A stretch of 64,000 nucleotides of DNA, taken from an uncultured Gammaproteobacteria bacterium (GTDB lineage Bacteria > Patescibacteriota > Microgenomatia > Levybacterales > GWA1-39-11). Shown here piece by piece: positions 8,003 through 37,060 of the stretch. The position numbers were made by a program, and so were the translations under genes. The stretch covers positions 1,715 through 65,714 of the forward strand of contig CAYVKP010000001.1 in assembly GCA_964452165.1 (NCBI GenBank), given 5' to 3'. The notes below the pieces were generated by a model. The model was not told the origin of the DNA, did not search any database, and worked only from the letters and a program-made list of their open reading frames with translations. Numbering within the stretch: position 1 is the first letter of the stretch; each line of letters opens with the position of its first letter.

Positions 8003-8008
8003 TCATTG

Positions 8009-8233: not shown

Positions 8234-8271
8234 AAGAGCTTGTCAATAGGGGAAATGTATTAATTCTAAAA

Positions 8272-8736
8272 TTATCTTGTCTGAGGACACGAAAATTGCA
8301 GAGTTACATCAGTTGCTCGAAAATCTACCAACCGTGTCTCAACACTATAAATCATGTCGGGTGTCATAAAGTCTATCGTAGTATGTCCAGGCTCTCTTCT
8401 TTGACGCAAAATAAGACCATCAACCCCACTGTTATCATATATCTCACCTGGTGGATTAATTGGAAAATGAGAGTTACCCACCTTTATGCCAGGGCCAGTT
8501 TGATCAAACGGAATAGTTTTATGTTCGGGCCTGAGAGTTTTGGGATCCTTACAATTGGCATTTACTCCTAACTCTAGTGGTCCAACTGTTTGTCCTTGGG
8601 AAAGTGAGCTAGAAATAGCTGGTCTAGTGGGAGCTTGTCTATTTTCAGAATTTGCAGATCCACGACAACCCATTAATACTGCTCCTAACGCGGCTGCCCC
8701 GAGCATTCTAACAGGCCACCTCATTCCCTCTAACAT
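8272..8736 (-). CDS. putative lipoprotein, hypothetical
   Basis: Signal peptide with lipobox-like LMGC. No recognisable domain. Confidence 0.6.
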   Translation of the reverse strand: MLEGMRWPVRMLGAAALGAVLMGCRGSANSENRQAPTRPAISSSLSQGQTVGPLELGVNANCKDPKTLRPEHKTIPFDQTGPGIKVGNSHFPINPPGEIYDNSGVDGLILRQRREPGHTTIDFMTPDMIYSVETRLVDFRATDVTLQFSCPQTR

Positions 8737-8763
8737 ACTCTATACTTATAATCCCATTGCCAA

Positions 8764-10548: not shown

Positions 10549-11586
10549 TTAGCTTTTATCCAGGATGTATTTTACACCTTTTGTCACGCCTTGCTTCTTG
10601 AGCAAGCCCTTTTTGACTAAATCCTGAACCTCGCGAAGAACCGTATCCTCGGAGACCATTGGAAAAAGCGAGTTATATGCGTTGTTTTCTATGTATCCGT
10701 TTGCTTGAATATATTCGATGATCTTAAGTTGTCGCTCTGACAACATTACCGGACCGCCTAATTTCTTTTTTAAATTGTTGTCAATTGAAATATTCTCAAT
10801 CCTATCTTTAATCTTGGATAGTTCTACCGCAAGACACTCCGTAAAATACTCGAGCCACTCTGTCTGGTCACCGTTTTTCTTTTCAACTGACTGCAATGCT
10901 TCATAATATCTTTCAGGATCACGATCAAAATGTTCTTCGATTGAGAAAAACTGACGAATGTCATAACCTAGCTTGTATAAGACGAGCATTGAAAGCGCGC
11001 GCCCTACCCTACCATTTCCATCTAAAAACGGGTGGATTCTGACAAATTCATAGTGAACTATTCCTCCTTTTAAAACCGGGTGAATCTCTGGCTCTTCCTG
11101 AATAAATATCGCAAGTTCTTTCATCTGCCAAGGGACTTCAACGGATTTTGGAGGCTTGAAAGCAACGTCTCCGGTTATTGAATTTCGGATTACGACTTCT
11201 TTCTGGCGATATTTTCCCGACTCCTCGTCCGGCAAAACGTTTTTGACAACTATTTTATGAAGTTCACGTATTGTATCCTCATCTATCTGTTGCCCTGTGT
11301 GGCGATCTATATAATCAATGACTCTGCGATAATTTATAACTTCCTGAACGTCTCGCTCTCTTGCAACGATTCGCTCTCCATCTAGTATTTTTTGGACTTG
11401 AGTTAAAGATAATTCATTTCCTTCAATGTGAGTTCCAAAATGCGTTGTCCTGACCAAAGCTTCATCTTGAAATTTCTTTTCCCAGTAAGGCAGGAGGGGG
11501 GCGTTTTCTATAATTTCTTTTGCCGCTTCAATTGCTCCAATATTCTTGAGAATCTTATTATCGATAGAAAAAGTTGGGGTATACAT
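10549..11586 (-). CDS. Fic family protein (AMPylase-type) with C-terminal wHTH
   Basis: Canonical Fic motif HPFLDGNGRVGR. Confidence 0.9.
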   Translation of the reverse strand: MYTPTFSIDNKILKNIGAIEAAKEIIENAPLLPYWEKKFQDEALVRTTHFGTHIEGNELSLTQVQKILDGERIVARERDVQEVINYRRVIDYIDRHTGQQIDEDTIRELHKIVVKNVLPDEESGKYRQKEVVIRNSITGDVAFKPPKSVEVPWQMKELAIFIQEEPEIHPVLKGGIVHYEFVRIHPFLDGNGRVGRALSMLVLYKLGYDIRQFFSIEEHFDRDPERYYEALQSVEKKNGDQTEWLEYFTECLAVELSKIKDRIENISIDNNLKKKLGGPVMLSERQLKIIEYIQANGYIENNAYNSLFPMVSEDTVLREVQDLVKKGLLKKQGVTKGVKYILDKS

Positions 11587-17012: not shown

Positions 17013-18112
17013 TTTGCTATTTTTGTGACGAATTCTTTTATCTTCTTATCAAAAATCTCCGAACTGAACTTTTGGGCTTGATGGCGACACACTTCCGAAC
17101 TGAACTTGGATGCTTCGAACTTTTTGATAGCTGAATTTAAACTTTCCGGAGTATTCTCATCAAAAAATATTCCGGTTTTTCCATCAACCACAGTCTCTTT
17201 TACTCCCCCAGACTTGTAGGCAATAACGGGCGTGCCCACAGCTTGCGCTTCAACCGGAGTTATTCCAAAATCCTCATCAAATGAAGCAAAAACGTAAGCC
17301 TTTGCTTCTGTCATTAAGCGCGATCGCGCATCATCTGTCACTTCTCCCACAAATTCAATATTGGATTTTGCAATTTTTCGCAACTCCTCATCAAATCCGG
17401 CGAATCCTTTACCAAAAATCTTAAGTTTTTTTCCGTTTTCATTAAAGGCCTTGATAATAATATCCGTTCCTTTAGCACGAGCAAGTCTTCCACCCGTCAG
17501 ATAGTAATTCTGCTTTTTAACTTTCGTAGGACTTTCTGGAATATCGACCGGGGGATTAATAACAACTGCATCTTTTCTATAAAACTTTTGAATTCTAGCT
17601 TTAATCTCTTCTGAATTTGCAATAAAGTAATCAACATTCTCAGAAGCTTTAAAATCTAAAAGTCTTAAGAAGTGGTTTGTGATTGTTCCAAAAAAATTCA
17701 TGAGGTGGTCTTTTTTCCACTCACGCGCTGTCATATAACCGTATAAATATCTTGGCGGCGTGTGAGTGTAGCAAATAAGTTTTGTCTTTGGTCCTTTCTG
17801 TGTTAGATTCGGGAAATACGCTCCGGTTTGCGAAACAATAATTACATCAAAATCATCTAGAACAAAGCTCCAAAAAGCAAAAGGCGAGAGCAATCGGAAG
17901 ACAGAAATCAATTTCTCGCGATATGGAATTAAATTGAGAAATGAGGCGCGAACATTCATTTTTACAAAGCTTGCTCCGTGGGGACCAAGAAATTCAGGTG
18001 CGAAAATTGAAGTGAAAATGGGCGCCTCAGGAAACAACTCATGGAGCTCCTCCAAGACCCTCTCTGCTCCACCGTATTCTTTTATATAATCGTGAACAAT
18101 AGCTATTTTCAT
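17009..18112 (-). CDS. glycosyltransferase family 4 (GT-B)
   Basis: C-terminal EDFGITPVEAQAVGTPVIA motif typical of GT4/GT1 enzymes. Confidence 0.85.
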   Translation of the reverse strand: MKIAIVHDYIKEYGGAERVLEELHELFPEAPIFTSIFAPEFLGPHGASFVKMNVRASFLNLIPYREKLISVFRLLSPFAFWSFVLDDFDVIIVSQTGAYFPNLTQKGPKTKLICYTHTPPRYLYGYMTAREWKKDHLMNFFGTITNHFLRLLDFKASENVDYFIANSEEIKARIQKFYRKDAVVINPPVDIPESPTKVKKQNYYLTGGRLARAKGTDIIIKAFNENGKKLKIFGKGFAGFDEELRKIAKSNIEFVGEVTDDARSRLMTEAKAYVFASFDEDFGITPVEAQAVGTPVIAYKSGGVKETVVDGKTGIFFDENTPESLNSAIKKFEASKFSSEVCRHQAQKFSSEIFDKKIKEFVTKIAK

Positions 18113-19038
18113 ATAAGTTTCATCTGATTTTGCTTTTTAGTTTCGGCTTTTTGCACAAATACCTCATCTACTCTCTTTGGCAAGGTTTTGAATTCGAATT
18201 CTTCAAGTGCTTTTTTGAACCCATCGACGTCAATTTTTGAAGCAAGACAATCATCAAAGTCACATGAAAAAGGCGCATCGGTCAAAATAGTCGCAAGAGT
18301 GTGAGAAATTTGTCCTGACTCTGCCCCATCAATCAATTTTTGGGCCAAATTTTTATTTTTAACCGCAATCTCATCTAAGTGCTTGTAAATATTGTCAAAA
18401 TTTCCATACGCATTAATCAAAGTTGCCGCGGTTTTGGGGCCGACACCCGGAACTCCGGGATAATTATCCGATGCGTCACCTGTCAAAGACTTTAAGTCTA
18501 TTATTTGCGCCGGATCTACTCCATATTGAGCACGGACTGATTCTTCATCGTGAATCTTAACCTCTGAAATTCCTTTTATAGGCATTAATACTAAAGTCTT
18601 ATGATTCACAAGCTGTAACATATCGCGATCTCCCGTCACAACATAAACGATATTTCCCATATCTTTTGCCCTGTGCGCCAAAGTTCCAATCACATCATCT
18701 GCCTCAAATCCATCTACTCCAATTTGCATAATTTTTGCTTTATTTAAAATTTCAATGATTGCCCCGAACTGATCAGATAGGTCTGACTCCATCTTTGGAC
18801 GTTGTGCTTGATAGCCAACGTACATTTGCTGACGGAAAGTTGGCTTTGGGCGGTCAAAAGCAACCACAACATGAGCCGGTTTTAGCTGCTGAAATAGTTT
18901 TAAAAACATTCCGAAGAATCCTGAAATTGCGCCTGTCGGGACTCCGGCCGAAGTTGTAAACGGAGGCATTGAATGATACGCGCGGTGGACAAGTGCCGAA
19001 CCGTCAATAAGCATAAAAACTTCCTTTTTAGCTTCCAT
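18109..19038 (-). CDS. 5'-3' exonuclease (FEN / Pol I N-terminal domain homologue)
   Basis: LIDGSALVHRAYH, VTGDRDMLQL, and the H3TH motif GDASDNYPGVPGVGPKTA. The ORF is open up to 19140, but MEAKK (ATG 19038) follows a TATAAT at 19046-19051, and the extra 34 codons run into the island boundary hairpin. Confidence 0.9.
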   Translation of the reverse strand: MEAKKEVFMLIDGSALVHRAYHSMPPFTTSAGVPTGAISGFFGMFLKLFQQLKPAHVVVAFDRPKPTFRQQMYVGYQAQRPKMESDLSDQFGAIIEILNKAKIMQIGVDGFEADDVIGTLAHRAKDMGNIVYVVTGDRDMLQLVNHKTLVLMPIKGISEVKIHDEESVRAQYGVDPAQIIDLKSLTGDASDNYPGVPGVGPKTAATLINAYGNFDNIYKHLDEIAVKNKNLAQKLIDGAESGQISHTLATILTDAPFSCDFDDCLASKIDVDGFKKALEEFEFKTLPKRVDEVFVQKAETKKQNQMKLI

Positions 19039-19064
19039 TGACCATATTATACAGGAGTTTTTGC

Positions 19065-19165
19065 CAATAAAAAGGGCGGTTGAGGAAGAAAAGTGAAAAT
19101 CATCATGAAGATGAAGCAAGTAGCATAAGCTACAGGTCACGATTCTATCAAACCGCCCTTTCGAA
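19065..19165 (-). terminator. long-loop inverted repeat / terminator-like element at the left island boundary
   Basis: Perfect 11-bp arms AAAGGGCGGTT (19071-19081) and AACCGCCCTTT (19151-19161). On the minus strand the stem is followed by TTTTTATT. The 69-nt loop contains the hairpin GTAGC-ATAA-GCTAC. Confidence 0.35.
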
Positions 19166-19410
19166 CTCAGTTCGCATTGTAAGATTCATCCCGCCGGAAA
19201 GAAGGTGAGCAAGCATGTAGCTCAGTTTCTACCCAAAGGGATATACACCTGGAAGGTGAAGGATCTTACAAAGAGTGTCTCCAGAGGAGACAGGTACAAG
19301 GCAATCGCCTTGTGGTCCTGTCGTCCTCCTTCGACGCTTTGGGACGCACCTATGTGGTCCGGCTGGCAGCTAGGCTGTCAGACGTACGACATCAGGCCGT
19401 GTCCGTGAGA

Positions 19411-20835
19411 TCACCTGCGGACAACCGTCGCGACCGCGGCACCGGAGATGAGGAGAACCACCATGACACCAGCAACGATGGTCCAGATCGAACTCGAGGA
19501 GGAGCTCATGGCAAGACCTGCGTCACCGGTAGCCGGTGGCTTGATCGAAGGCGTCAGCGGCGCGTCGGCGGTGTCCACGGGGCGTGGAGCCGGTTCGGAG
19601 CCGTTGTAGTAGCCGTTGATCGCGGGCGTGTCAGCGTCACCAGCGTTCGTCGTGGTGCGACCATCGAACGTCGAGGACGTAGGAATGGGCACGTTAGATG
19701 CCGAAGGTGACTGTGCGAAGGCATCGTTCGTCGAGAAGACGTTGCTACTGACGAGCGGAGCCGGACCCTGACCCGTTGCGTAGTCCTTGACGGTGACCGT
19801 GTCTGTCGCCTGAGCGTTCACAGGATCGCTAGACGCCGTGTCGGCCGTCGTGTTGGACTGGTTGACCACGTAGACAGCGATGCAGAAGCCGGAGGGGTTC
19901 TCAGGCGCAGCGCATGCGGTCTTGGAGGCGACAGCGACGATCAGCAGACACGTAGTGCCAGGTGACGCCGTAGCGCAGCCGTTGTTGGTCAGGTTGTTCG
20001 TGTTCTGGCCGGCCAGGTTCGGCAGGCTCAGGTAGTTCGCCAGGCCAGGGTTCGAAGCGCCGATGACGACGGCGTCGAGCTGGCTGAAGTTAAGCAGACC
20101 CTGTTGTACCACGGGAAGTACGCCGAGAATTCGGCCGTCGATCAGGACCGTCAAGTGAGCGTTCGGGATCGACACAGCGTCGCGGATGTCGAGAACAGCG
20201 CCGTCAGAGCCAGCGGCCGGGACGAGTGCGTTCGTGACGTCGTTGACAGAGTTGCCCCTATTCGTGGCCTTCTCGTCACCGGTGGGGCTCGTCTGGTATG
20301 CAGCGACCGTGATGGATGCCGGCAGGCCAGTAAGCCTTAACGTGGCGGTAAGGACGATGTTCGGCACGCCGAGGTAGTTCGGCAGGCTCAGGTTGTTACC
20401 CAGCGGGTAGTTGGACTCCTGGACGTTGGTCTTGCCGAGAGTCGTTCCGGGGGCCATGTTGGTGCCCGAGTTGGCCAGGTTGGCCAGGTTCAGTTGGCTA
20501 ACGACTACGTAGTCGATGCCACTGCTGGAGAACGTAACGACCTTTTCGGCGAGGAGGATACCTCCAGGATCCGATCCGGTGTAGACGTCGTGCAACGAGT
20601 TGTTCGTCTGGACGGTCGACGCCGCAATACCTGGGGTCGAGTCAGACGTTGCCGCGGCAGTAGGAGCCGGCGAAGTCCAGAAGGCCGTCAAGCCAAACAG
20701 AACTGCTACCGTTACTGCCAGGGCGAAGAGCTTTGCCAGCGACACGCGCGGAGGCGGGTCCTGATAGTTGGTTGTGTGTCTGGTTTTCACCGGACACTCC
20801 TTTCCTTGCAAGGAAATGCCTGCATTCTGCAGCAT
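19411..20835 (-). CDS. cell-surface protein with sortase-type C-terminal sorting signal
   Basis: C-terminus KPPATGDAG + hydrophobic helix IWTIVAGVMVVLLISGAAVATVV + RR tail. N-terminal signal/anchor LAKLFALAVTVAVLFGL. Internal NLSLPNYLG/NYLSLPNLAG repeats. The likely true start is GTG 20790 (AAGGAG 6 nt upstream). Confidence 0.75.
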   Translation of the reverse strand: MLQNAGISLQGKECPVKTRHTTNYQDPPPRVSLAKLFALAVTVAVLFGLTAFWTSPAPTAAATSDSTPGIAASTVQTNNSLHDVYTGSDPGGILLAEKVVTFSSSGIDYVVVSQLNLANLANSGTNMAPGTTLGKTNVQESNYPLGNNLSLPNYLGVPNIVLTATLRLTGLPASITVAAYQTSPTGDEKATNRGNSVNDVTNALVPAAGSDGAVLDIRDAVSIPNAHLTVLIDGRILGVLPVVQQGLLNFSQLDAVVIGASNPGLANYLSLPNLAGQNTNNLTNNGCATASPGTTCLLIVAVASKTACAAPENPSGFCIAVYVVNQSNTTADTASSDPVNAQATDTVTVKDYATGQGPAPLVSSNVFSTNDAFAQSPSASNVPIPTSSTFDGRTTTNAGDADTPAINGYYNGSEPAPRPVDTADAPLTPSIKPPATGDAGLAMSSSSSSIWTIVAGVMVVLLISGAAVATVVRR

Positions 20836-21562
20836 GGGTTGTGAAAAGAACGTTCCTCCCTCGCACCTTGCGAGATAGATCTTAGCTCTAAGCTATCCAC
20901 TTTGTGTACGGGTGTCTTTCCGGCGTCTGTCCTCGATGCCTCCCTCGGATGAGATCACTGCTGAGAACATCAAGGGCCAGGCCTTTCAGACTTTCCCGAA
21001 CTTTCGAGATCATCCCCTTTCAGTACTGCCTCTACGGTCAGTACTCTATTTCCAAGAGCTTGCCGAAGCGGGCGGCGGATCACAAGGCTACGCGGGGTGT
21101 ACCCGTTTCAGACTCGCTCTGAGAAAGCATTGGAGGGACGCCCCTTTTCCCTACGGACCAATCCGGCACTTTGCCGAACTTAAAATGTGTTGGGACGTCC
21201 CCTGATGATTAGCAGGTCTTCGATTCAAGCGAACACGTGCCCTGCACGTAATGCGTACAAATCCGCTCGTTTTCCGTTCAGCCGAATGCGTTGACGCACG
21301 GTTGATCTTTGACCTGCTCGTGGGAGCTCACCTCATCAGGGTGGCTTCTGGTAGTGATGCACCTTGCATCTCCTTTCTATTGATAGTAATCATCTCCGAC
21401 CCGAGCACCGAGAGCAGACTTTCGTCGCTGGCTCGACAACCGGAGAGAATCCCCTTAGTGGGAGACGTCCCATTTTTACTTACCCCACAAATGCCCGTCG
21501 TAAAGACAGGTTCCTCCTTTCTGAACTAGGAGCTGGACGCGGGACGTCTCCGGCGGCAATGG

Positions 21563-21750
21563 GTTTAGACAGTCAATACGAACCCTCCTTTCAGGGTTAT
21601 TCAGATAAGGCTCCGGGGAGTGAGCCTGGATCTGGCTGGTGGGAGGTAGCAGCAATAGACAGGGGGACAGGACCCTGTACTCGGCGCTTACTGCTACCAG
21701 ATGGTTTGGGAGGAACCCTACCATCCTTTTCCCAAGAACGTGCAAGTCCG
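21563..21750 (-). repeat. internal structured module, copy I
   Basis: Shares ordered blocks with copy II: ATAC, hairpin, AGATAAGG, hairpin, CCTGGATCTGGCTGG, GGTA..GCAG stem, AGATGG...CCATCCTTTYCCC, GTGCA(A)GTC. Confidence 0.6.
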
Positions 21751-22075
21751 AGGATTTCTCCTTGGACTGGGAATGGCTATGGAGACCATGGAGCGATGGG
21801 TCCAGAGGGCCTCCTGGTTGTTAGGGCGGAGCTCTTATCCGTGTCAGTGCGTTGTAGACATTTGCACTTTCCATGGCACCCTTCCTCTTTCGAGAATGGC
21901 TGGAGATCCGGCCTCGTACGAGTGGTCGCCTCTTATGAGGACTGAGCAGCTGGCTGCAACCAGACTTTTATATCTCAGCAACGACCATAGGCTGTGCTGC
22001 CATTAGGGCGGAGAGCGTGACCGGGTCACTATGCAAACGCGTCTGTTAAGAAGCGTCCACTTCCGGTTTACCTCC

Positions 22076-22250
22076 ACCATACTCGACTCCTCCCTTCGAG
22101 TCTTCCTAGATAAGGTCTCAGCACTAGACCTGGATCTGGCTGGCGGGGTACGGCAGCTGAAACACGAATGCGATCGTGACACCACTGCCTAAAGATGGGT
22201 TCCAAGCCATCCTTTCCCCGATGAAAAGTGCAGTCTCCTCACGATGAGAA
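22076..22250 (-). repeat. internal structured module, copy II
   Basis: See copy I. It lies about 510 nt away in the same orientation. Confidence 0.6.
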
Positions 22251-22522
22251 GACGTAGTTTTCCAGGAGGTGAAGGTCTCTTCACTTGCGCAGGCCACCAC
22301 GCGAAGAGAGCTTGCACCACTAGCCTGGTGAGTGTCGTCAACCGCCATACCACAGATCGTGGTAGTCCAGCACAAGGCGGAGACAAGACAACTCCTGGAC
22401 TCATCGAGATAGCAAGATGAGCCTAATTTGCGTCATTCAAGTGGAAAGCCATTCCACAAGAAAGTTATTTTGAATAACGAACAACAATAAAATAAAACTA
22501 AAATTTGATTTTTGTAAAATCC

Positions 22523-22546
22523 TTAAAAAAGACTCCTTCTGGAGTG
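22523..22546 (-). terminator. intrinsic terminator inside leader A (minus strand ACTCC-AGAA-GGAGT + T6)
   Basis: Hairpin at 22531-22545 with A6 on the plus strand at 22525-22530. Confidence 0.6.
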
Positions 22547-22720
22547 TGGGGTTGTGAATTCAGACAATAAACAAACTCGTAATTATTGCCTCAGCTCACA
22601 ACCGGACACAAGCGCTATGCAAATAAGCGCTGTCAAAAGAAGTTATGCGAACTGGTTGTTAAAGTGCAAAACTTTTTTGCCAGAACGCATGCATTTGCAT
22701 AAAGGCATTATGTTATGTAA
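22523..22720 (-). promoter_or_regulatory. leader A: conserved 5' leader/sRNA-like element downstream of promoter A
   Basis: Shares ATTACATA, TGCATGC and the TTTYGC.CTTTAACAACCRGTT.GCR.AACTTCTTT block with leader B. Additional hairpins are AGCGCT...AGCGCT and GGTTGTGA...TCACAACC. Confidence 0.5.
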
Positions 22721-22724
22721 TGCG

Positions 22725-22753
22725 AGTATATCTCTAAGGGAATTGCTTTTCAA
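22725..22753 (-). promoter_or_regulatory. promoter A: TTGAAA-N17-TATACT
   Basis: -10 box is the reverse complement of 22725-22730, and the -35 box the reverse complement of 22748-22753. The spacer is exactly 17 nt. Confidence 0.6.
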
Positions 22754-22904
22754 TTGGGCATTTACTGTAGCCTGAGGGGGATTGGGCGCGGGAATAGGAT
22801 ATAGATGTTTGTCTTCTTGAAGAAGACGATGCAGTTTGACTGCTACATCAGGTCCTAAACCCGCGTCCGCACCGGTTGCGAATTTATTTGTTGTAGATCA
22901 CCTC

Positions 22905-24398
22905 CTATCTTCTGGTAGGAACTTGTGTCGCAAGACACTGTCCTGTCGCGATGACGTAATAGTCGCAGTTAGTCGGCGGCTGAGGATTTCCGCTTGGCTT
23001 CTGCGGCTGGACAGGCTGTTGCTGGACCGAAGGACCCGAGTTGGCCTTGCCAACAATCTGGTACGTTGCGGTGTTGCTTACGAGCGGTGTGTTGCCGTCG
23101 TATAGCGTAATCCTAAGCGTATCAGTGCCAAGTGGCGGAGCAACATTGCCCGTCGATTGACAGCCTGTGCCGGCGTTCACGTATTTGCTGACTGGCCGAG
23201 TCGCCGGACTTCCGTCTTGGGGAGAGTCGGTAACAACTATCGTACCAGCCTGCGACACATTCCAGCAGAACTTACCACTCGTGTAGACCGTTATGACTGA
23301 TGGATCAGCCCAAACGCTCACAGTAGCGGCAGGTGGTGGAGGTGCCGGACGAGATGTCGGCGCGGGTGGTGGTGCCGCGGGCGCTTGGGGCGCAGGCGGA
23401 ACCTTGGTCGCTGTTGGCGGTGGCGCTTGAACCTGCTGAACTTGCGGAGCAGGCGTTGGCGGCGTGAACGACCCAATGTTGGGTGCTGGACCCGACTTTT
23501 TTTGAATCTCAACGGAAGTGGTGTCTACCGCGACTTTCACGTCGTCGACATATGCTACTGCAGCGATGCTGTAGATGCCAGGAATGACATTGTCGACGAT
23601 TGGAATCGTGGTGCAGGACTTTTCTTCCGAAGAATACCCATTCCACAACGGCGTTGGCTCCTCTCCTTCTCGGGAGAAAGTTGAAACTACTCTGTACCAG
23701 ATCTTCTTGTTGAGCTGGAAACAAAGAGTTGCGCGGTCTCCTTCGACGTAGACGTTCTTGCCGTCATTGAACCACACTTTTAGAGTGTAGCTGAACGGAG
23801 CAGGCGTTGATGTTGCCGTTGACGGTGCCGCCTTCACCTCAGGGTGATCGTAGTCATCCCTAAGTTGGGAGTGTAACCACCCCATCACAGGTGAAAAACG
23901 ACCCTTGGTGTCAATTATGTTCGCTGGAGAAATCTGTAGGCTGGTTTGCCATTTTTCACCAACGTTCTGCTGAACGAAGGTGATTTTTCCGTTCGCCACT
24001 CCGGTGACCAGCGCCACATGTCCCCAAGGCCACTCCTCGTTTTTCCCGAAAACGAGAATGTCTCCCGGAACAGGAGCAGTTGAAGAACCGTTTTCGTACA
24101 CGTTGGCGAAGTTAATGTTGTCCTTGTTTCCAAACATCTCAAATGCATTGAGACCCCAGTTGTAAGGACCCCATTCTCTCTCGCCCCAGTAACGCTGAAC
24201 GAATTCGACGCACTGCCACTCAATACCGTACTTTGACGAACGTCCGGAGTAGTAAAACGGGTCATCTCCGTTGGAGAAGATGTCCGTTTTGTCGTAGGTT
24301 CCAAGACGCTGTCCGAATGACGACGACGCCATAACGATACCTACGAAAATGAGGGGGCTCAATCCCAGAAGGACTGCAGCCCTGACTAACCTGATCAT
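22905..24398 (-). CDS. secreted CHAP-domain peptidoglycan amidase/endopeptidase with two beta-rich domains and Pro-rich linkers
   Basis: Signal peptide. CHAP catalytic pattern ...GIEWQCVEFVQRYW... (Cys) and ...WPWGHVALVTGV... (His). PAPQ/PPP linkers. Confidence 0.9.
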   Translation of the reverse strand: MIRLVRAAVLLGLSPLIFVGIVMASSSFGQRLGTYDKTDIFSNGDDPFYYSGRSSKYGIEWQCVEFVQRYWGEREWGPYNWGLNAFEMFGNKDNINFANVYENGSSTAPVPGDILVFGKNEEWPWGHVALVTGVANGKITFVQQNVGEKWQTSLQISPANIIDTKGRFSPVMGWLHSQLRDDYDHPEVKAAPSTATSTPAPFSYTLKVWFNDGKNVYVEGDRATLCFQLNKKIWYRVVSTFSREGEEPTPLWNGYSSEEKSCTTIPIVDNVIPGIYSIAAVAYVDDVKVAVDTTSVEIQKKSGPAPNIGSFTPPTPAPQVQQVQAPPPTATKVPPAPQAPAAPPPAPTSRPAPPPPAATVSVWADPSVITVYTSGKFCWNVSQAGTIVVTDSPQDGSPATRPVSKYVNAGTGCQSTGNVAPPLGTDTLRITLYDGNTPLVSNTATYQIVGKANSGPSVQQQPVQPQKPSGNPQPPTNCDYYVIATGQCLATQVPTRR

Positions 24399-30022: not shown

Positions 30023-30301
30023 CTAAACCGTGGGTCTTTTTTTAAAGGAGTCGAAAGTTTCGGTAATTTCCTGCCAATCAATCGCCACACTTTTTATTTC
30101 AGAAAGCATTGGTCCTCGCGAACAAGCTTCGACAAACTCTTTTAATTTTTGGTCTTCTCCCTGAGCCAAAACCTCTACTCTCTTATCGGATAAATTACGA
30201 ACCCAACCTGCAACACCAATTTTTTTTGCAGAATAGTTGACGAAATTTCTGAATCCTACACCTTGAACAAGACCGGAGATTAAGAGGTGAACCTGTTTCA
30301 T
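30023..30301 (-). CDS. acylphosphatase
   Basis: VQGVGFRNF signature, 92 aa. Confidence 0.9.
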   Translation of the reverse strand: MKQVHLLISGLVQGVGFRNFVNYSAKKIGVAGWVRNLSDKRVEVLAQGEDQKLKEFVEACSRGPMLSEIKSVAIDWQEITETFDSFKKRPTV

Positions 30302-30306
30302 ATGAG

Positions 30307-31338
30307 TTAAATCAAGCCCATTTTTTGGCGGACCTGCTCAACTGTTGCGGCGGCAACTTTTCTTGCTTTCTCGGCCCCTTGCGCAATTACCTTATCTACA
30401 AATTCCGGATTTGCCTCAAGCTCGCGTCTTTTCTGCTGAATCGGCTCAAGTTCTTTATAAATTGCTTCTGCAAGACTATTCTTCAAATCTCCATAACGAA
30501 CTCCATCCGCATCGTATTGAGCCTGATACTCTTTCATTTTCTCAAATCCCTGAAAGAGTTCTACAAACTTCATTAGGGCTCCCACCCCCTCGGATAATTT
30601 TCCGTTTTCATTTTCATAATAATATTCCTTCTTGCCTTCCATCTTGCGAACTACTCCACGTCCACTATCTGTTGTTACTCGGGCAAGAGCGGCTTTAATC
30701 TCGTCAAGGCTGTCGGTCAAGTTAATATACGTTCCTTCGACAGATTTACTCATCTTTCCCTCGCCTGTTAGTGATGGAACATATTCGCCTTTTGTTTTAA
30801 ACCTTTGAGGTTCCGGAAAATCCATTCCATACATCTCGTTCATTTTTCTTGCTATTTCACGTGTCACCTCTATGTGCGATTCTTGATCTAACCCGACAGG
30901 AACCATTGATGCCTTATAAATCAATATGTCAGCAGCCATTAGGACCGGATAATTAAGTAACGCCATATTTACATTTTCAGGGTGTTGCTTAACCTTTTCC
31001 TTAAAAGTTGGCAGGTGCTGCATTCGTGCAACAGTTACCACTGACGAGAAATAAAAAGCAAGCTGGGTGTGAAGATCAGCCAATTGCGATTGAGCAAAAA
31101 TTGCTGATTTTTCCGGGTCAAGACCAACCGACAAATAATCAATTATTACGCTTTTTGCGTTTAAACCAATTTTCTTAGGATCAAATGGGGTGGTTAAGCC
31201 ATGAAGATCCGCAACCATATAAAAGGTTTCGTATTCCGGATCTTCTTGCAACGCAAGCATACCCTTGGCAGTACCAAGATAATTGCCTATATGCAATTTT
31301 CCGGTTGGTCTCATTCCTTGTAATACTGTCTTTTTCAT
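30307..31338 (-). CDS. trpS: tryptophan--tRNA ligase
   Basis: GMRPTGKLHIGNYLG (HIGH-type) and KMSKS. Confidence 0.95.
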   Translation of the reverse strand: MKKTVLQGMRPTGKLHIGNYLGTAKGMLALQEDPEYETFYMVADLHGLTTPFDPKKIGLNAKSVIIDYLSVGLDPEKSAIFAQSQLADLHTQLAFYFSSVVTVARMQHLPTFKEKVKQHPENVNMALLNYPVLMAADILIYKASMVPVGLDQESHIEVTREIARKMNEMYGMDFPEPQRFKTKGEYVPSLTGEGKMSKSVEGTYINLTDSLDEIKAALARVTTDSGRGVVRKMEGKKEYYYENENGKLSEGVGALMKFVELFQGFEKMKEYQAQYDADGVRYGDLKNSLAEAIYKELEPIQQKRRELEANPEFVDKVIAQGAEKARKVAAATVEQVRQKMGLI

Positions 31339-31340
31339 AT

Positions 31341-31751
31341 TTATTTTCCTTTCTTAAATCGTTTTAAAAAATAATCTAAAAAAATATCTATTAATTGTTG
31401 GTTATCGCTTTCAAAAAAAGTTTTATCTATTTTGAAAAACAACTTTCTTCTATCAATTATTAAAAGTCTTTGGTATATAGATGGGTCTTTTTCTAACCTA
31501 AAAAAATATTTCTGCGACTCAATTCTATATTGTTTACTGATTTTAACATACTCTTCCCGCGTTCCAAACCCAATCCTCTTAAGAACAACCCCTTTATCAA
31601 TCCTTTTCGCTAAAAGATTGCGATAGGAAACTGGCAGGGGGTTTTTTACCTCTTCTGATAGAAGCATTGATGCAAGGATTTCTTTTTTTGCTTTTCTTAC
31701 TTCCTTCTCAACTTCATTAACGATATCTTTTTTGTCAATTATTTTAATCAT
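31341..31751 (-). CDS. hypothetical protein
   Basis: 136-aa ORF tightly packed between trpS and the upstream gene. No domain recognised. Confidence 0.5.
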   Translation of the reverse strand: MIKIIDKKDIVNEVEKEVRKAKKEILASMLLSEEVKNPLPVSYRNLLAKRIDKGVVLKRIGFGTREEYVKISKQYRIESQKYFFRLEKDPSIYQRLLIIDRRKLFFKIDKTFFESDNQQLIDIFLDYFLKRFKKGK

Positions 31752-31752: not shown

Positions 31753-33474
31753 TTATTTTCTCACAAACATAAACCTCAGTAATGAAAGTCTTGGCCCGTC
31801 TTTCCCATATAATATTGCGTCATCCGGCTTAAAAGGAATGGGGATTGCCGTCAGGTCGATTTTCTTTCCTTGTCTTTTTGCCAATTGTACAGCCTTATGA
31901 ACTTCTGAAAAGCTTTTAACATCGTAACGAAAAGTTGGAATATAAGCTTGGTCGTTTCCAACTGAAAAATAAACAATATCATTATCTATTCCGCCTTTTT
32001 GGAGTGCTCCCTGAATAGCTTTGAATTTGTTGTGAACACCTTCGGGTTTATCCAGGTTGGAAGGAGCTATTATTTTAAGGAATTTATCAACGACTTTTGG
32101 ATCAATTACTTTTCTTTCAAAAGTCGTTGCCTCTGTCTCGAAAAGTTTAACAAAGGGATCAGGATAACAATCTATCTCACCCAAGGCGACCCGGCGCAAG
32201 AGATCTTCATAGCCTGGTGCATCGGTTGAAATGTTAAACAGAAGAACGGATGAACCACCATAGATTTCATTTACCTGACTTAAAGTGCAAGGGTCTGCTC
32301 TTCTTCCTTGATTTAAAAATTCTTTACGAAAAGCTCCAAGCTCTAAATGCTCAAGAGTATCCTCTCTATTATTAATCACTTCGTCTCGTGTAAGTAAAAC
32401 GATGTCTCCAGCTGAGCCGGCGGATACTGCTTCGACAACCTCCATTTTTATCCTTTCGTTTATCTCTTTAATTGCTTGCAGTGGACCTTCATCATTAGGC
32501 ACGTTTATCATATCGCTTGTTAAGAACATACCAAGATCGGGCATATTAATTCTTTCAATATCAAAAGTACCATCTTTTCGAATTAGAACATCTGGTTGAA
32601 AATAAAGAAACGCTCTGGTATCGGTATTGCTTTGAAAAGGTTGTTCGGCTAATCCGTTTGCCATGAGAACTGCATCTTTAATTGGCATCCCTGCACCTGC
32701 AAGACCACGTGTAATTGCTGCCTTTCTCTCGATTCGGGCAATGATTTCCTGTGTTTTTTGAGAGATGGTGTCGGTCAAATCCTGGCCTATTGTTATTTGT
32801 CGATCCGTCTGAATAGGACGAAATAAGAAAAACTCTTCCCTTCCTACTACTGCCCGGCGGGTTGACTCAATATTATTTGCCTGACAAATTTCTCTTAATT
32901 TCATAATCGCTTCATGAGTTTGTCTATATTCTCCTATTTCGTAGTGATGTTTAACCAAGCCTATTTGTCTAGTTACTTCAATTTGAGCACTTTCCGGAAA
33001 CTTACCTGCAAGTGAGGCATCTTTAATTGCCATTCCGACAAATGCTTCAAGAACAGCCGAGCCCTGCTCTCTTACTATCCTGCCATCAAGGTTTGAGGGT
33101 GGTTTATCATCCATAGTGAAATATCCTACGTTTCCTCCGGGTCCCTGATCCGTCTTAATAGTAGGTCTGTAAATCCCTAAGCCTCTAAATGCTGTTCGCA
33201 TTGCACCTTCATCTTGTGGAAAGAATGCTGCACGAAAAGGAAATGGCGGTTTCTCTTTAAGGACGGCAAAATTTTTGCTTGTTTCAAAAGCTGCGTCAAC
33301 TGAATCCGGAGACTCTATGAGAGGACGAGATGCGTCATATAAATAACGCATACTCACAGATGCAGCTTTAATTCGACCACCAAATATAAGGGGCCTATAT
33401 CGCTCGGTACCGGATACCCGTTCTTCTTGAACCTTATCTTTTTGATTTAATCTGATTGAATATTCAGGGTTCAT
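31753..33474 (-). CDS. hypothetical protein, possibly ATP-grasp-like
   Basis: Long, well-behaved 573-aa ORF. The segment FDIERINMPDLG resembles the E-x-N Mg-ATP motif of ATP-grasp enzymes. This is a weak assignment by eye only. Confidence 0.55.
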   Translation of the reverse strand: MNPEYSIRLNQKDKVQEERVSGTERYRPLIFGGRIKAASVSMRYLYDASRPLIESPDSVDAAFETSKNFAVLKEKPPFPFRAAFFPQDEGAMRTAFRGLGIYRPTIKTDQGPGGNVGYFTMDDKPPSNLDGRIVREQGSAVLEAFVGMAIKDASLAGKFPESAQIEVTRQIGLVKHHYEIGEYRQTHEAIMKLREICQANNIESTRRAVVGREEFFLFRPIQTDRQITIGQDLTDTISQKTQEIIARIERKAAITRGLAGAGMPIKDAVLMANGLAEQPFQSNTDTRAFLYFQPDVLIRKDGTFDIERINMPDLGMFLTSDMINVPNDEGPLQAIKEINERIKMEVVEAVSAGSAGDIVLLTRDEVINNREDTLEHLELGAFRKEFLNQGRRADPCTLSQVNEIYGGSSVLLFNISTDAPGYEDLLRRVALGEIDCYPDPFVKLFETEATTFERKVIDPKVVDKFLKIIAPSNLDKPEGVHNKFKAIQGALQKGGIDNDIVYFSVGNDQAYIPTFRYDVKSFSEVHKAVQLAKRQGKKIDLTAIPIPFKPDDAILYGKDGPRLSLLRFMFVRK

Positions 33475-34328
33475 CTTTCTCCTTTCATTTCTTCTCGTGA
33501 AATTTTCTTTGCTTTCAGGCAGAAAGTATCGTAAGAAGCTTCTTTAACAAATACCGGATAAAAATCATCTTCGGCACGCATGACATTGCCGGATCTTCGC
33601 GGCATAGACAGAGACAGTACTTCGTCGCCTCTCTTAACCAGATTAAAGTTATGAACAAAAGACACAAGCTTGTCATCGCTATGCGGAGGGTATTTAATGT
33701 TTCCAAACAGTTCATAGTAGTTACTTCCCACATGATCAACGACACCCAAATATTCGTATATGATTGAAAACTCTCTGGAAGAAATCATTCCTAAAGAATG
33801 GAGCGTATTTTTAACTGCCCTCATCCCCATTTCGTATGAATAATCACTTCCGTGAGGACCAAGCTCTATGCCTACACCGCACTTAACAAAATCAATCATC
33901 GCGTAGTCTTTGTCACGAGGAATTAATAAAATGTTCTGAATCCCCATTACCTCAGCCAATCTAACTCGGGCAGGATCCTTTTTGTCAACAATTGCGAATG
34001 CTTCGGTCTCTGAAGTCGTTGAATGAAGATCTATTGCATAATCTGAATCCCGCACTGTTTTAAATACCTGCGGAGCAAGCCTTGATTCAATGGAGTCTTT
34101 ACTCCTACCACCTGGGAAAGCTCTATTTAAATCTTCTGAAATGAATCTAGTTCCACCGAACAAAGCAGGAGGGTTCGCAACGACTAGTCTGAGCGTGCCT
34201 TTTAATAATTTTTCTGGGCGTATTATTCTTCTAAGATCGTCAAGAATGTATACTCCCACTTCTTCATTGCCGTGCATTGCCGCAGTAACGGCGACAATCG
34301 GGTGACCATGGCCAATTTCAGCCAACAC
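33471..34328 (-). CDS. succinylglutamate desuccinylase/aspartoacylase (AstE/AspA, M14-like) family protein
   Basis: AAMHGNEEVG zinc-binding motif and ...AIDLHS... The start codon is uncertain (GTG 34328; the frame stays open upstream without an ATG). Confidence 0.8.
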   Translation of the reverse strand: MLAEIGHGHPIVAVTAAMHGNEEVGVYILDDLRRIIRPEKLLKGTLRLVVANPPALFGGTRFISEDLNRAFPGGRSKDSIESRLAPQVFKTVRDSDYAIDLHSTTSETEAFAIVDKKDPARVRLAEVMGIQNILLIPRDKDYAMIDFVKCGVGIELGPHGSDYSYEMGMRAVKNTLHSLGMISSREFSIIYEYLGVVDHVGSNYYELFGNIKYPPHSDDKLVSFVHNFNLVKRGDEVLSLSMPRRSGNVMRAEDDFYPVFVKEASYDTFCLKAKKISREEMKGER

Positions 34329-34473
34329 AATGGGACGATCGACCGGTTTTAATCCTTCAATTGATAGAAGCTTCTGTCTTCTTTCTTCTGGGCCAAACTA
34401 ACCCCTCCCCCGCTTGAGGAGGGGTTTCCTTTCCATATAAATTGTGTTCGAAATCTTTATTCATATTTTTCCC

Positions 34474-34500
34474 AATAAAAAACCTCCCCTTCAGGAGGTC
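34474..34500 (-). terminator. intrinsic terminator (ACCTCC-TGAAGG-GGAGGT + T6ATT on the minus strand)
   Basis: Hairpin at 34482-34499 with an A-run on the plus strand upstream. It is the middle of three CCTCC/GGAGG hairpins. Confidence 0.65.
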
Positions 34501-34602
34501 ATATAATTTTTGTTGTGTTTAAATTACACTACAAAACTAACCTCCTAATTCAGAAGGTTTTGCCAATCACTCAATTTATTAACTTTAAAATTATTTTTCA
34601 TA

Positions 34603-34854
34603 TTAAACACTTATAAATTTTCCTCTTTTTATTTCTTTTGAACCTCTTGTAACAGTTGCTATTCCAACACCAAGCTTTTCTGCAATCTTGTGTTGCGGTA
34701 CCCCACTCTTGATCATTTTTACTATTTCCAAACGTGTCGGGATTTCAACCAATTCTTTAGGTGTAAAAATTCCCTGAAGGAAGTTAAGCATTTCCTCTTG
34801 AGAATTTATACTTAACAAAGCATCAATCAAGGAATCTAAATACCTATCGTTCAC
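34603..34854 (-). CDS. TrpR-like YerC/YecD family protein
   Basis: 83 aa: ...FTPKELVEIPTRLEIVKMI..G.PQHKIAEKLGVGIATVTRGSKE (HTH). Confidence 0.8.
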   Translation of the reverse strand: MNDRYLDSLIDALLSINSQEEMLNFLQGIFTPKELVEIPTRLEIVKMIKSGVPQHKIAEKLGVGIATVTRGSKEIKRGKFISV

Positions 34855-34896
34855 AAGTTATATTATACTAGTGTACTAGTATTTGTCAAGGGGGAA

Positions 34897-36258
34897 CTAT
34901 GCCAAAGCTTCGACTTCTTGCTTAAATTGGGCACCTCGTTCTTTGTAATTCTTAAACATATCAAAAGATGCGCAGGCGGGCGTCAGAATGACTACGTCAC
35001 CAATCTCAGCAACAGCTTTGGCGGCCTTTACAATTTGTTCCATGTTTGTTGCGTCTTCAATAATATGAAACTTATGGAAATGGCCGATTTCAGCTTTAAT
35101 CTTTGGCCATTCCTCACCAATTCCAATAACAGCTTTTATATTTTTTGCGTTGCGAATAGTTTTGCCAAGGCCGGAGAAATCGCTATTCTTGCTTGACCCA
35201 CCAAGAATTAATATCTCGGGGTCTTCAAACGCTTCAATTGCGGCAGTTGCCGTCTCTGGAGTTGTTGAGAAAGAATCATCATAGTAGCGGACTCCATTGA
35301 AAAGACGGACAAGCTCAAGCCTATGCTCAAGTCCTTTAAATTCCTTAAGAACTGCAGCTATGTTTTGTATCTGAACACCCGCAATATAGGCTGCCATTGC
35401 TGCGGCACATGCATTTTCCCAGTTATGTTTGCCCGGAAGAAGAATGTCGGCTGTCGCCAAAACTTTTTGCTCACCTTCATCATTCTTTATGACAATAAAT
35501 CCGTCTTTGACAAAACAGCCGCGGTCAACATTAAGTTCCCTACTTACAAAATACACTTGTCCCGCGGTTACAATATCGCTTTCATTGCTTGCCGGATAGT
35601 CGCGATTTATAACAGCGCTATCAACAGGACTTTGGTAGCGCAAGATATTTCTTTTTGCGTCCACATATTCCAGTACGTCCCTATGGTAGTCCAAATGTTC
35701 GCTTGTAACCATCAAAAACACCGCAATTTGAGGACTTTTGGTCAAATCCTGTAGTTGGAAGCTTGACAGCTCCAAGACGACCTTAGAATCGGATTTGAGC
35801 TGATCTATAAAATCCAAAGGTGGCGTACCAATATTTCCCCCAAGATAAACGGCCGCTCCCTGCTTTTTAAGCATCTCATGAATTAAACTTGAAGTTGTAC
35901 CCTTACCTTTCGTCCCGGTAACTCCAATTATTGGGCACGGACACAGGTCAAAGAAAATTTTGGTAGCAGAAGTTACGGGAGTTTTCTGTTTTTTAACTTT
36001 CTCAATTACGGCAGACAGGGGGCTAATTCCAGGTGAACGGACTACAAAGTCGAACCCTGAGAAGTCGTCAGGGTATGAATCCAAAATAAAATCGACATTT
36101 TTCTCGCGGAGCAGGTCAATCTTGTCTTTCTCAAGGGTAGACTCACTTCTAACATCTGAGATCGTGATTTTTGCATCATTTTTAAGTAAAAACGAGGCAA
36201 CACTCTCCCCTTCTACCCCAAATCCCAAAATTAAAACTTTTTTTCCTTTAAATTCCAT
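34897..36258 (-). CDS. murD: UDP-N-acetylmuramoylalanine--D-glutamate ligase
   Basis: GVTGTKGKGTT P-loop and Mur ligase architecture. Confidence 0.95.
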   Translation of the reverse strand: MEFKGKKVLILGFGVEGESVASFLLKNDAKITISDVRSESTLEKDKIDLLREKNVDFILDSYPDDFSGFDFVVRSPGISPLSAVIEKVKKQKTPVTSATKIFFDLCPCPIIGVTGTKGKGTTSSLIHEMLKKQGAAVYLGGNIGTPPLDFIDQLKSDSKVVLELSSFQLQDLTKSPQIAVFLMVTSEHLDYHRDVLEYVDAKRNILRYQSPVDSAVINRDYPASNESDIVTAGQVYFVSRELNVDRGCFVKDGFIVIKNDEGEQKVLATADILLPGKHNWENACAAAMAAYIAGVQIQNIAAVLKEFKGLEHRLELVRLFNGVRYYDDSFSTTPETATAAIEAFEDPEILILGGSSKNSDFSGLGKTIRNAKNIKAVIGIGEEWPKIKAEIGHFHKFHIIEDATNMEQIVKAAKAVAEIGDVVILTPACASFDMFKNYKERGAQFKQEVEALA

Positions 36259-36271
36259 TTATTTTGTTTGA

Positions 36272-37060
36272 TTATAGTTCAGCTTTATATACTCTATCAA
36301 GCCTGTATCCCAAAAGCCTTTGTGACACTACACGAAACTTTTGAGAATCTGCCGTTGTGTAATACAAATCATGAAGTTTTTTTGCTGAAGCCATGTCTTC
36401 TTGGGCAAGTATTTGTTTTACTCTTCTTGCTACGGCTCCTCCCGAATCATAAATAGTGACTTTTTTACCTACAATTTTTTTAATCTCCTCTGTCAAAAAT
36501 GGATAGTGAGTACAGCCCAATGCGATTGAATCGACTTTTTTTGCAAGAAGCGGTAAAAGTGATCTTTTAATTGCTGCCTCAATCTCAGACCCATCAATTA
36601 TCCCTTTTTCGACTAGATGTTCGAGCTTGCTCGTACCGATTGTATAAACTGTGATTTCTGAGGCGAATTTTTTTATTAAGTCTTTAAGATAGCGGCTTCT
36701 TGCAGTTGCGGGAGTTGAAAATACCGCAGTCTTTCGAGTCTTCGTTTTTTTGGCCAAAGTTTTAACGACAGGAACAACTGCAATTATAGGTACGTCGAAT
36801 TCTTGGCGTAAATAATCAATCGCATTAACGCTTACAGTATTACACGCAACAACAATTAACTTAACGTCTTTTTTGAGCAAAAAAGCAACAACTTTTGAAG
36901 AAAGAGATTTTATTTTGGCAACAGTTCTGCCTCCGTAAGGATTATTCTTTTGATCTGCTAAATAGATGAATGACTCACGAGGCAAAAGCTTCTTTATTTC
37001 GGTAAGAATGGTCAAGCCCCCAACACCCGAATCAAAAATTCCGATTGGTCTATTATCCAT
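36272..37060 (-). CDS. murI: glutamate racemase
   Basis: IGIFDSGVGGLT, VVACNT and LGCTHYP catalytic-cysteine motifs. Confidence 0.95.
   Translation of the reverse strand: MDNRPIGIFDSGVGGLTILTEIKKLLPRESFIYLADQKNNPYGGRTVAKIKSLSSKVVAFLLKKDVKLIVVACNTVSVNAIDYLRQEFDVPIIAVVPVVKTLAKKTKTRKTAVFSTPATARSRYLKDLIKKFASEITVYTIGTSKLEHLVEKGIIDGSEIEAAIKRSLLPLLAKKVDSIALGCTHYPFLTEEIKKIVGKKVTIYDSGGAVARRVKQILAQEDMASAKKLHDLYYTTADSQKFRVVSQRLLGYRLDRVYKAEL

Follow-up and report, generated by a model that had tools for sequence, protein, structure and literature searches.

What do two overlapping genes do together when one encodes a recognizable zinc deacylase and the other a large protein to which no domain name can be given? 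The question is posed by positions 31753–34328 of a 64,000-nucleotide (nt) stretch of DNA from an uncultured bacterium (contig CAYVKP010000001.1 of GenBank assembly GCA_964452165.1), which in its entirety we call the window. A reading made from the sequence alone had seen in the pair a possible ATP-grasp-like ligase and a deacylase that together build and trim a small-molecule or protein modification. Both open reading frames (ORFs) are indeed present on the minus strand, with the deacylase gene upstream and the gene for the 573-amino-acid (aa) protein, here named FAM573 along with its family, downstream. However, the notable object at this locus is not the ligase–deacylase pair. It is an operon, probably responsive to tryptophan (Trp) starvation, around a cryptic enzyme of predicted LanB/PEARL-like fold and a partner that appears to be a pseudo-phospholipase D (pseudo-PLD).

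The first evidence for this comes from gene neighborhoods. Our survey took in 27 distinct loci, on metagenome contigs or in species-representative genomes, 14 of them (including the window) of Candidate Phyla Radiation (CPR) type, i.e., Levyibacteria-like, Parcubacteria-labelled, Saccharibacteria and others, and 13 from metagenome-assembled genomes (MAGs) labelled Alphaproteobacteria. The sequence-only reading had been made to depend, beforehand, on a ligase–deacylase pairing that is conserved in other genomes, and this pairing fails: the deacylase was seen in two of the 14 CPR-type loci (the window and locus L004) and in none of the 13 labelled Alphaproteobacteria. It is missing even from L008, L010, L013, and L039–L041, although their FAM573 proteins are 41%–51% identical to that of the window. 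What does recur is the next small gene. A match to the profile of small136, the protein encoded directly downstream of FAM573 in the window, was found in that position in all 13 loci labelled Alphaproteobacteria and in seven CPR-type loci. In L039–L041 the slot holds an ORF of 137–138 aa, recognized by position and size only, and in four loci it is filled by a B3/4-like protein. It is strongly supported that this small gene, and not the deacylase, is the obligate partner of FAM573; the deacylase is an accessory member of the operon.

The usual order at CPR-type loci is a TrpR-like gene, FAM573, the small protein, and the gene for tryptophan–tRNA ligase (TrpRS), often with 4-nt overlaps. The TrpR-like gene lies upstream of FAM573 in 10 of 14 such loci, and TrpRS was confirmed downstream in 10 of 14 (in L039 and L040 the gene in the slot is cut by the contig end). 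This module is retained in genomes of ~0.65 Mb from several CPR lineages. In the loci labelled Alphaproteobacteria, FAM573 and the small136 homologue form a stand-alone pair whose neighbors are unrelated (Fe-ADH, GT61, CoA transferase, MscL, MatE).

In the window, the deacylase, FAM573, small136, TrpRS, and acylphosphatase genes follow one another between 34328 and 30023 with junctions of −4, +1, +2, and +5 nt, and the deacylase/FAM573 pair is therefore part of a longer operon. The 4-nt overlap at 33471–33474, which had been taken to imply co-translation, was confirmed, as the deacylase stop and the FAM573 start share the ATGA at 33474–33471. An ATGA junction is, however, very common in bacteria and unremarkable by itself. 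The best explanation of the region is a single operon that runs on the minus strand, 5′ to 3′, from a promoter through the TrpR-like gene, a Trp leader/attenuator, the deacylase, FAM573, small136, and TrpRS, possibly to the acylphosphatase (Table 1). The promoter is the probable start of the transcription unit. Small136, TrpRS, the TrpR-like repressor, and the Trp-codon leader had all gone unnoticed in the sequence-only reading. No tRNA-Trp gene occurs in the window.

Table 1. Features of the proposed operon in the window, in order of transcription
Feature	Position	Strand	Basis
Putative sigma-70-type consensus promoter, TTGACA-16-TATAAT	34862..34889	-	12/12 hexamer matches; precedes TrpR-like gene
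TrpR-like (YerC/YecD family) helix-turn-helix regulator, 83 aa, Trp-free	34603..34854	-	Pfam Trp_repressor E=1.4e-20; NCBIfam yecD_yerC 48 bits vs cut-off 42.2
Leader ORF 1, MKNNFKVNKLSDWQNLLN (then stop)	34545..34601	-	Translation; one Trp codon at 34565-34563
Attenuator RNA (predicted)	34475..34559	-	Hairpin search and constrained folding
Leader ORF 2, MNKDFEHNLYGKETPPQAGEGLVWPRRKKTEASIN (then stop)	34357..34464	-	ORF and GC-rich hairpin 34421-34402, then GTTTGG
AstE/AspA-family zinc deacylase, 285 aa, GTG start, Trp-free	33471..34328	-	PF24827 E=6e-24
FAM573, 573 aa, ATG start, Trp-free; predicted LanB-glutamylation/PEARL-like, ATP-grasp-derived fold	31753..33474	-	Predicted structure and motifs
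small136, 136 aa, single predicted phospholipase-D-fold domain, degenerate HKD motif, Trp-free	31341..31751	-	Partner of FAM573
Tryptophan–tRNA ligase (TrpRS), 343 aa, Trp-free	30307..31338	-	TIGR00233 trpS 279 bits vs cut-off 176.75
Acylphosphatase, 92 aa, 2 Trp	30023..30301	-	Pfam Acylphosphatase E=2.6e-26; 5 nt past TrpRS

When would such an operon be expressed? Leader ORF 1 begins 1 nt past the TrpR-like stop codon, and its single UGG stands just 5′ of a first hairpin (34559–34539, AACCTTC..GGAGGTT). A terminator hairpin follows (34500–34481, GACCTCC..GGGGAGGT, then a T-run). Two pairings are open to the 3′ arm of the first hairpin (GGAGGTT): one with the hairpin's own 5′ arm, the other, an antiterminator alternative, with that of the terminator. 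When the window RNA was folded with the first 51 nt masked, as if a ribosome were stalled at the UGG, the antiterminator formed and the terminator did not; with masking through the stop codon, the terminator formed. Equivalent Trp-containing leader ORFs occupy the same position in L001, L006, L008, L010, L012, L013, L014, and L022, and the layout of leader and hairpins recurs in L001, L006, L008, L010, L012, L013, and L022. All nine CPR-type leaders examined (those of loci with a TrpR-like gene) have one to three in-frame Trp codons behind a Shine–Dalgarno-like sequence, in tandem (WW) in L001 and L012.

The loci labelled Alphaproteobacteria achieve a similar arrangement by other means. In all 13 (L015–L020, L024–L030) the leader ends in ..(F)WWH(C/S/F/Y) followed by the stop, and the TGG-TGG-CAC of the WWH is itself the 5′ arm of an invariant hairpin, with the TAG stop in the loop, 76–174 nt before FAM573 (TGGTGGCAC-NNN-TAG-TGCCA plus a T-run; e.g., L024 5815–5885). 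Farther upstream are a TTGACA/TATAAT promoter and a 5′ hairpin. FAM573 thus sits behind Trp-codon leaders in two lineages and two designs. Control of the trp operon in Escherichia coli by TrpR and trpL is the obvious comparison, as it shares the TrpR-family gene, a short leader ORF in which Trp codons occur (as a tandem pair in several of our loci), and, by prediction here, overlapping 1:2, 2:3, and 3:4 hairpins that end in an intrinsic terminator. However, the E. coli attenuator controls trpEDCBA, whereas the window leader precedes FAM573, its partner, and TrpRS. Also unlike E. coli, the gene for the TrpR-like repressor is the first of the same transcript, and in the design labelled Alphaproteobacteria the two adjacent Trp codons are part of the terminator stem.

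Two further leader elements should be mentioned. ORFs of the type of leader ORF 2, with the pattern ..G(E/Q)xG.VW, lie directly before the family gene in L004 (~5844–5912), L005 (~5848–5927), and L014 (~5898–5993), where they overlap a GC-rich hairpin that is followed by GTTTGG. In L004 the UGG-UGA of this ORF shares bases with what may be the UUG/GUG start codon of the family gene, and the element may be one of translational control. Incidentally, some database entries seem to fuse this region wrongly onto the N-terminus of the family protein. The second element was seen in L004 (5672–5763) and L005 (5752–~5835), where AAGCAAGGTGGCACCG resembles the T-box core GGUGGNACC, a UGGC could pair with a GCCA acceptor end, and a terminator follows AAGCAAGGTGGCACCG, with a 5′ arm complementary to the CAAGG before it. 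A T-box was not recognized by Rfam in either locus, even at E ≤ 1, and the resemblance is a tentative lead.

Composition provides a second kind of evidence. The TrpR-like protein, deacylase, FAM573, small136, and TrpRS of the window contain 0 Trp in 1,420 residues, where 13.7 would be expected from the other ORFs of the window (mean 0.96% Trp; P ~1e-6). Trp is also absent from 32 of 36 FAM573 sequences (at least three of the four exceptions carry long N-terminal extensions), 10 of 11 TrpRS, three of three B3/4-like proteins, and both AstE proteins. Proteins that are needed while an amino acid is limiting are expected to avoid that amino acid, and the Trp-free composition lends independent support to a Trp-limitation response. 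We consider it likely that the operon is switched on when charged tRNA-Trp runs low, because two unrelated designs combine Trp-codon leaders with predicted terminator/antiterminator hairpins, because TrpRS and the TrpR-like gene are co-operonic with FAM573 in CPR bacteria, and because the proteins are essentially Trp-free.

What kind of protein, then, is FAM573? The statement that it has no nameable domain proved correct. It matched nothing in Pfam or NCBIfam at E ≤ 0.1, including the ATP-grasp family hidden Markov models (HMMs), and searches of the PDB with the single sequence and with a family profile returned no relative beyond noise. A word-indexed search recovered 36 homologues, all without Pfam domains, and the few that have source names are from Patescibacteria/CPR MAGs. 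When 1.84 billion cluster representatives were searched exhaustively with a HMMER profile, only 95 proteins came up, all of the FAM573 family and none a bridge to a known one. It is strongly supported that, by sequence, FAM573 fits no described family and founds a small new one. Full-text literature searches likewise found no paper on a FAM573-like protein, on its pseudo-PLD partner, or on a TrpRS operon of CPR bacteria under the control of a Trp leader.

Members are 27%–58% identical to the window protein, yet in the family alignment (A1) a set of acidic, basic, and glycine-rich motifs is invariant or nearly so: GGR34xK, KTDQGPGGN (108–115), YFQPD295, (E/D)307-(R/K)-I-N310-x-P312-D313, D372-x-L-E-x-x-E378, N414, P-D-P440, F-R-Y-D, and G-P-R562-L-x-x-F-R567-F. 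Such motifs are typical of an active site. AlphaFold2 run on the same alignment gave a confident model (predicted local distance difference test 89.2, predicted TM-score 0.88). When the model was compared with known structures, LanB glutamylation domains covered 431 residues of FAM573, as against ~257 (~45% of the protein) for ATP-grasp ligases (GspS-like, YgiC, and glutathione synthetase), which are nevertheless significant matches, and Foldseek returned the same two groups. Both the ATP-grasp core fold and the tRNA-dependent glutamylation-domain fold were found in the predicted model. It is very likely, on the strength of this model, that FAM573 shares its fold with the glutamylation domain found in tRNA-dependent LanB dehydratases and in PEARLs, a domain itself derived from ATP-grasp. 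The proposal of an ATP-grasp-like fold was right about the core, but the closest fold is that of the LanB domain and not of a generic ATP-grasp ligase.

The segment FDIERINMPDLG (residues 304–315) had been likened to the E-x-N element of ATP-grasp ligases. It falls in a conserved beta-hairpin (D295, E/D307, N310, P312, D313) but reads E307-R-I-N310, i.e., E-x-x-N. In the model the invariant D295 and the conserved E/D307 stand opposite each other on strands 291–298 and 304–310 of the hairpin, resembling the pair that binds Mg in ATP-grasp enzymes, and judged by strand position they lie on adjacent strands as D257 and E270 do in Ddl. At the sequence level, hhalign of the 36-sequence FAM573 alignment against eight plasmid LanBs (whose genes were recovered with a NisB query) gave a probability of 0.1%, so the case for FAM573–LanB homology comes from structure.

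FAM573 differs from LanBs in several respects. The latter (NisB, MibB, MadB, TbtB, GodF) have 800–1,000 aa and an elimination domain, whereas FAM573, with ~570 aa, a single compact model, and no match to Lant_dehydr_C, lacks that domain. LanBs do not use ATP, whereas FAM573 retains ATP-grasp-like acidic residues, and they are found in lanthipeptide clusters rather than in a TrpRS/Trp-leader operon of reduced genomes. With PEARLs (TglB, AmmB2, BhaB7) it shares a LanB-glutamylation-type domain without an elimination domain. PEARLs consist solely of the LanB-glutamylation-like domain and need ATP and aminoacyl-tRNA; together with LanBs, they have been proposed to descend from ATP-grasp enzymes, with an ATP/Mg-carboxylate site made of an acidic pair and of N- and C-terminal arginines (PMC11117183; PMC11962472). 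In FAM573 we infer a similar layout, with R34 near the N-terminus, the D295/E307 hairpin, and R562/R567 near the C-terminus, comparable to the arginines described near each terminus of TglB and BhaB7. Given that no PEARL structure has been solved, the comparison goes through LanB structures and published AlphaFold models. From the predicted fold and the published PEARL features, FAM573 would therefore be a PEARL/LanB architecture in a much smaller protein. PEARLs themselves have ~800–900 aa, match Pfam Lant_dehydr_N (FAM573 does not), carry a His in place of the ATP-grasp Asn (in FAM573 there is an Asn, Asn310, but displaced by one position), and occur in natural-product clusters with scaffold peptides of 40–50 aa. 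BhaB7 and AmmB2 use Trp-tRNA-Trp, and FAM573 is tied by genome context to TrpRS and Trp sensing.

Could the operon then be a miniature pathway for a peptide made by the ribosome and modified after translation (RiPP), in which the short upstream ORF is the scaffold or precursor ("pearlin"), FAM573 extends or modifies its C-terminus with Trp-tRNA from the co-encoded TrpRS, and the AstE/AspA enzyme, acting like a carboxypeptidase, releases the product? A small ORF does lie immediately upstream of the LanB/PEARL-fold gene in every locus, and hairpin terminators are usual after the precursor genes of lanthipeptide operons. Known PEARLs, moreover, attach Trp from Trp-tRNA to scaffold peptides (PMC11962472). 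However, the peptides encoded here have 6–31 aa as called (the shortest calls are uncertain) and are poorly conserved beyond the Trp codons and the bases that encode the hairpins. In the loci labelled Alphaproteobacteria the last residue is encoded in the hairpin loop and varies between C, S, F, and Y, and the CPR leaders show the classical four-segment geometry of an attenuator. There are no further tailoring, export, or immunity genes, the avoidance of Trp by the operon proteins fits a starvation response and not a pathway whose product consumes Trp, and retention in such small genomes of several CPR lineages also speaks against a RiPP. We regard this pathway as improbable; with its Trp codons, a stop codon in a hairpin, and a terminator/antiterminator, the short ORF fits a regulatory leader better than a precursor.

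The partner of FAM573 gives a further indication of function. The structure predicted for small136 with database homologues as input has a PLD-type fold. The catalytic HxKxxxxD is absent from the family, with an invariant Y93-Q94-R95 and a near-invariant D100 (Y93-Q-R95-x4-D100) in its place, a replacement that suggests a pseudo-PLD of the kind seen in FAM83 or in TrmB's ligand domain. In Saccharibacteria loci the slot protein has ~200 aa and a weak match to B3/4, the editing domain of phenylalanyl-tRNA synthetase. B3/4-like proteins and small136 show no sequence relation (hhalign 0.2%), and we therefore treat them as alternative partners. The module also forms fusions. In L005, a B3/4-like domain is fused to TrpRS (7578–9050) and a second, complete TrpRS follows in tandem (9098–10099); in L004, small136 forms the N-terminal part of a fusion with an AstE/AspA protein, while TrpRS carries a fused YbaK/ProX-like deacylase domain (9480–10979). 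All of these unusual TrpRS proteins of L004 and L005 score above the trpS equivalog cut-off. Between the two L004 fusions lies a Trp-free protein of 236 aa with weak matches to GNAT acetyltransferases (8763–9473), which hints at a theme of N-acylation and deacylation in that version of the operon.

A partner of this ligand- or protein-binding pseudoenzyme kind (e.g., TrmB, FAM83) would also suit a sensor module, in which FAM573 and the pseudo-PLD, catalyzing little or nothing, bind uncharged tRNA-Trp, or Trp, and modulate the TrpR-like repressor or TrpRS. The tight linkage to the TrpR-like gene in CPR bacteria is in keeping with this, as is the anti-TRAP logic of Bacillus, where anti-TRAP is reported to be induced through sensing of uncharged tRNA-Trp (PMC10327191). 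We nevertheless find a non-catalytic sensor highly improbable, given that the active-site-type motifs are invariant among FAM573 members as divergent as those above, and that near FAM573 in the loci labelled Alphaproteobacteria there is no TrpR-like gene and no TrpRS.

What remains of the deacylase? That it is a genuine AstE/AspA-type zinc hydrolase, as its HGNEEVG motif had suggested, was borne out: the 285-aa protein matches Pfam AstE_AspA_cat well above threshold (PF24827, 85.1 bits vs. a cut-off of 25), and inspection of the sequence shows H19-G-N-E22, D-L-N-R69, D-L-H102, and I-E155-L-G. By analogy with aspartoacylase, and from motif position only, we take H19, E22, and H102 to be the zinc ligands, E155 the catalytic Glu, and R69 the carboxylate-binding Arg. 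The protein belongs to no characterized orthologue group among the equivalog sets compared, which include AspA, AstE (succinylglutamate desuccinylase), and DoeB. It scores far below each cut-off (84.9 bits vs. 180 for aspartoacylase; 39.9 vs. 170, 37.4 vs. 305.65, and 22.5 vs. 402.7), and we therefore predict no substrate. Like the rest of this family, which hydrolyzes N-acyl amino acids, it has the catalytic domain as well as the residues for zinc binding and catalysis; it differs in being Trp-free and in its place in a Trp-regulated operon. A functional link to the FAM573 module is backed by the small136–AstE fusion of L004 and by the shared Trp-free composition, whereas the absence of the gene from 25 of 27 loci counts against a conserved pairing.

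This is the point at which to weigh the function first suggested for the pair, i.e., a tRNA-independent ATP-grasp carboxylate–amine ligase and an AstE/AspA hydrolase that build and trim a modification of amino acids or peptides in the style of RimK or GspS, with Trp involved only because the product contains or mimics it. The structural matches to GspS-like proteins, YgiC, and glutathione synthetase, the conserved acidic hairpin, the fusion of AstE to the partner protein in L004, and the loci labelled Alphaproteobacteria, where the adjacent genes include neither a tRNA nor an enzyme that acts on one, all favor it. However, LanB glutamylation domains fit the model far better. GspS, YgiC/YjfC, and eukaryotic-type glutathione synthetase leave the LanB-type elaborations of FAM573 unaccounted for and give no HMM match, the deacylase is too rarely present, and the recurrent neighbors and fusions are aminoacyl-tRNA proteins (TrpRS, B3/4-like, YbaK-like). 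We therefore consider a tRNA-independent ligase unlikely.

Our preferred reading is a Trp-limitation-induced, ATP-dependent ligase module that is probably linked to tRNA-Trp; taken as a whole, it has a chance that we would put at slightly under even. The involvement of tRNA-Trp in FAM573 function, proposed by analogy, is possible but somewhat doubtful. In this scheme FAM573 would use ATP at the D295/E307/N310/D313 site to form an acyl phosphate on a carboxylate, which would then be joined to a nucleophile, and it would engage the 3′ end of a tRNA as LanBs and PEARLs do, here tRNA-Trp or Trp-tRNA-Trp. Small136, or the B3/4-like partner in Saccharibacteria, could be the binding subunit for the tRNA end or an aromatic ligand. 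The deacylase could be an optional hydrolase of N-acyl-Trp or a C-terminal Trp amide that releases free Trp, its target bond being either of the same type as the ligase product (a PEARL-like reaction with Trp) or that of a salvage substrate. The physiological role of the whole would be a response to Trp limitation.

Several points weigh against this scheme. Sequence-level homology of FAM573 to LanB/PEARL or ATP-grasp proteins was not detected by Pfam, NCBIfam, PDB profile, or hhalign comparisons, and the Mg-site motif has its Asn at +3 where canonical ATP-grasp has it at +2. The attenuator is an in silico model with crude ribosome footprints, under which L008 and L006 switch as the window does, but L001 and L010 do not (the terminator persisted). 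Binding of tRNA is suggested by fold and gene context only (TrpRS, the B3/4-like partner, and the TrpRS fusions), and the loci labelled Alphaproteobacteria have no adjacent tRNA-related gene and no TrpRS or TrpR-like gene nearby. Finally, it would be odd to induce an enzyme that consumes Trp-tRNA just when Trp-tRNA is scarce, and for this reason the reaction may run either as salvage toward Trp or Trp-tRNA, or toward its use.

One bolder version can be stated, although we hold it to be very improbable. FAM573 and its partner might be a tRNA-Trp-directed enzyme of primary metabolism, a surviving ATP-dependent intermediate between ATP-grasp and PEARL/LanB, that at Trp scarcity either charges tRNA-Trp by an acyl-phosphate route or salvages Trp from acylated or peptidyl forms onto or through tRNA-Trp. 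If true, translation could be fed independently of a synthetase, and the case would show a role of the LanB fold before its recruitment to natural-product pathways.

Short of that, FAM573 stands apart by its size, its motifs, the partner it has, the way it is regulated, and the biological context, and a new function is a real possibility. Natural-product clusters are the only known setting of LanB dehydratases and PEARLs, and their ATP-grasp origin is a recent proposal; a compact FAM573, unrecognizable as a relative by sequence but with ATP-grasp-like acidic residues, and encoded in ultra-small CPR genomes within a TrpRS operon of housekeeping type, is a candidate for the ancestral or an intermediate state. 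The operon can be tested as a dedicated Trp-limitation response in organisms generally thought to lack amino-acid biosynthesis, and it gives a physiological setting to three "hypothetical" proteins (FAM573, the pseudo-PLD partner, and the B3/4-like partner). If tRNA-Trp should be the substrate, tRNA-dependent non-ribosomal chemistry would extend into core physiology.

Some minor observations concern the surroundings. The acylphosphatase at the end of the gene run is classed as only possibly co-transcribed because the other loci lack it and it is not Trp-free; its position beside an enzyme expected to form acyl-phosphate intermediates is curious. We also considered a link to peptidoglycan synthesis, as MurI and MurD genes lie upstream in the window (34897–37060) and in L008, L009, L011, and L013 (MurD also in L039 and L040). 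We judged this to be local synteny, since in the window the consensus promoter stands between them and the operon, and other lineages lack them. In L005, positions 518–712 of the minus strand match a group I intron (71.7 bits, E=6e-16) near a tRNA gene. Elsewhere in the window, positions 18000–24000 have a G+C content of 0.49–0.57 (vs. ~0.40 in the rest) and contain no rRNA by comparison with Rfam; with ORFs at 19411–20835, 21364–21945, and 22905–24398 (the last with 13 Trp), this segment may be acquired DNA.

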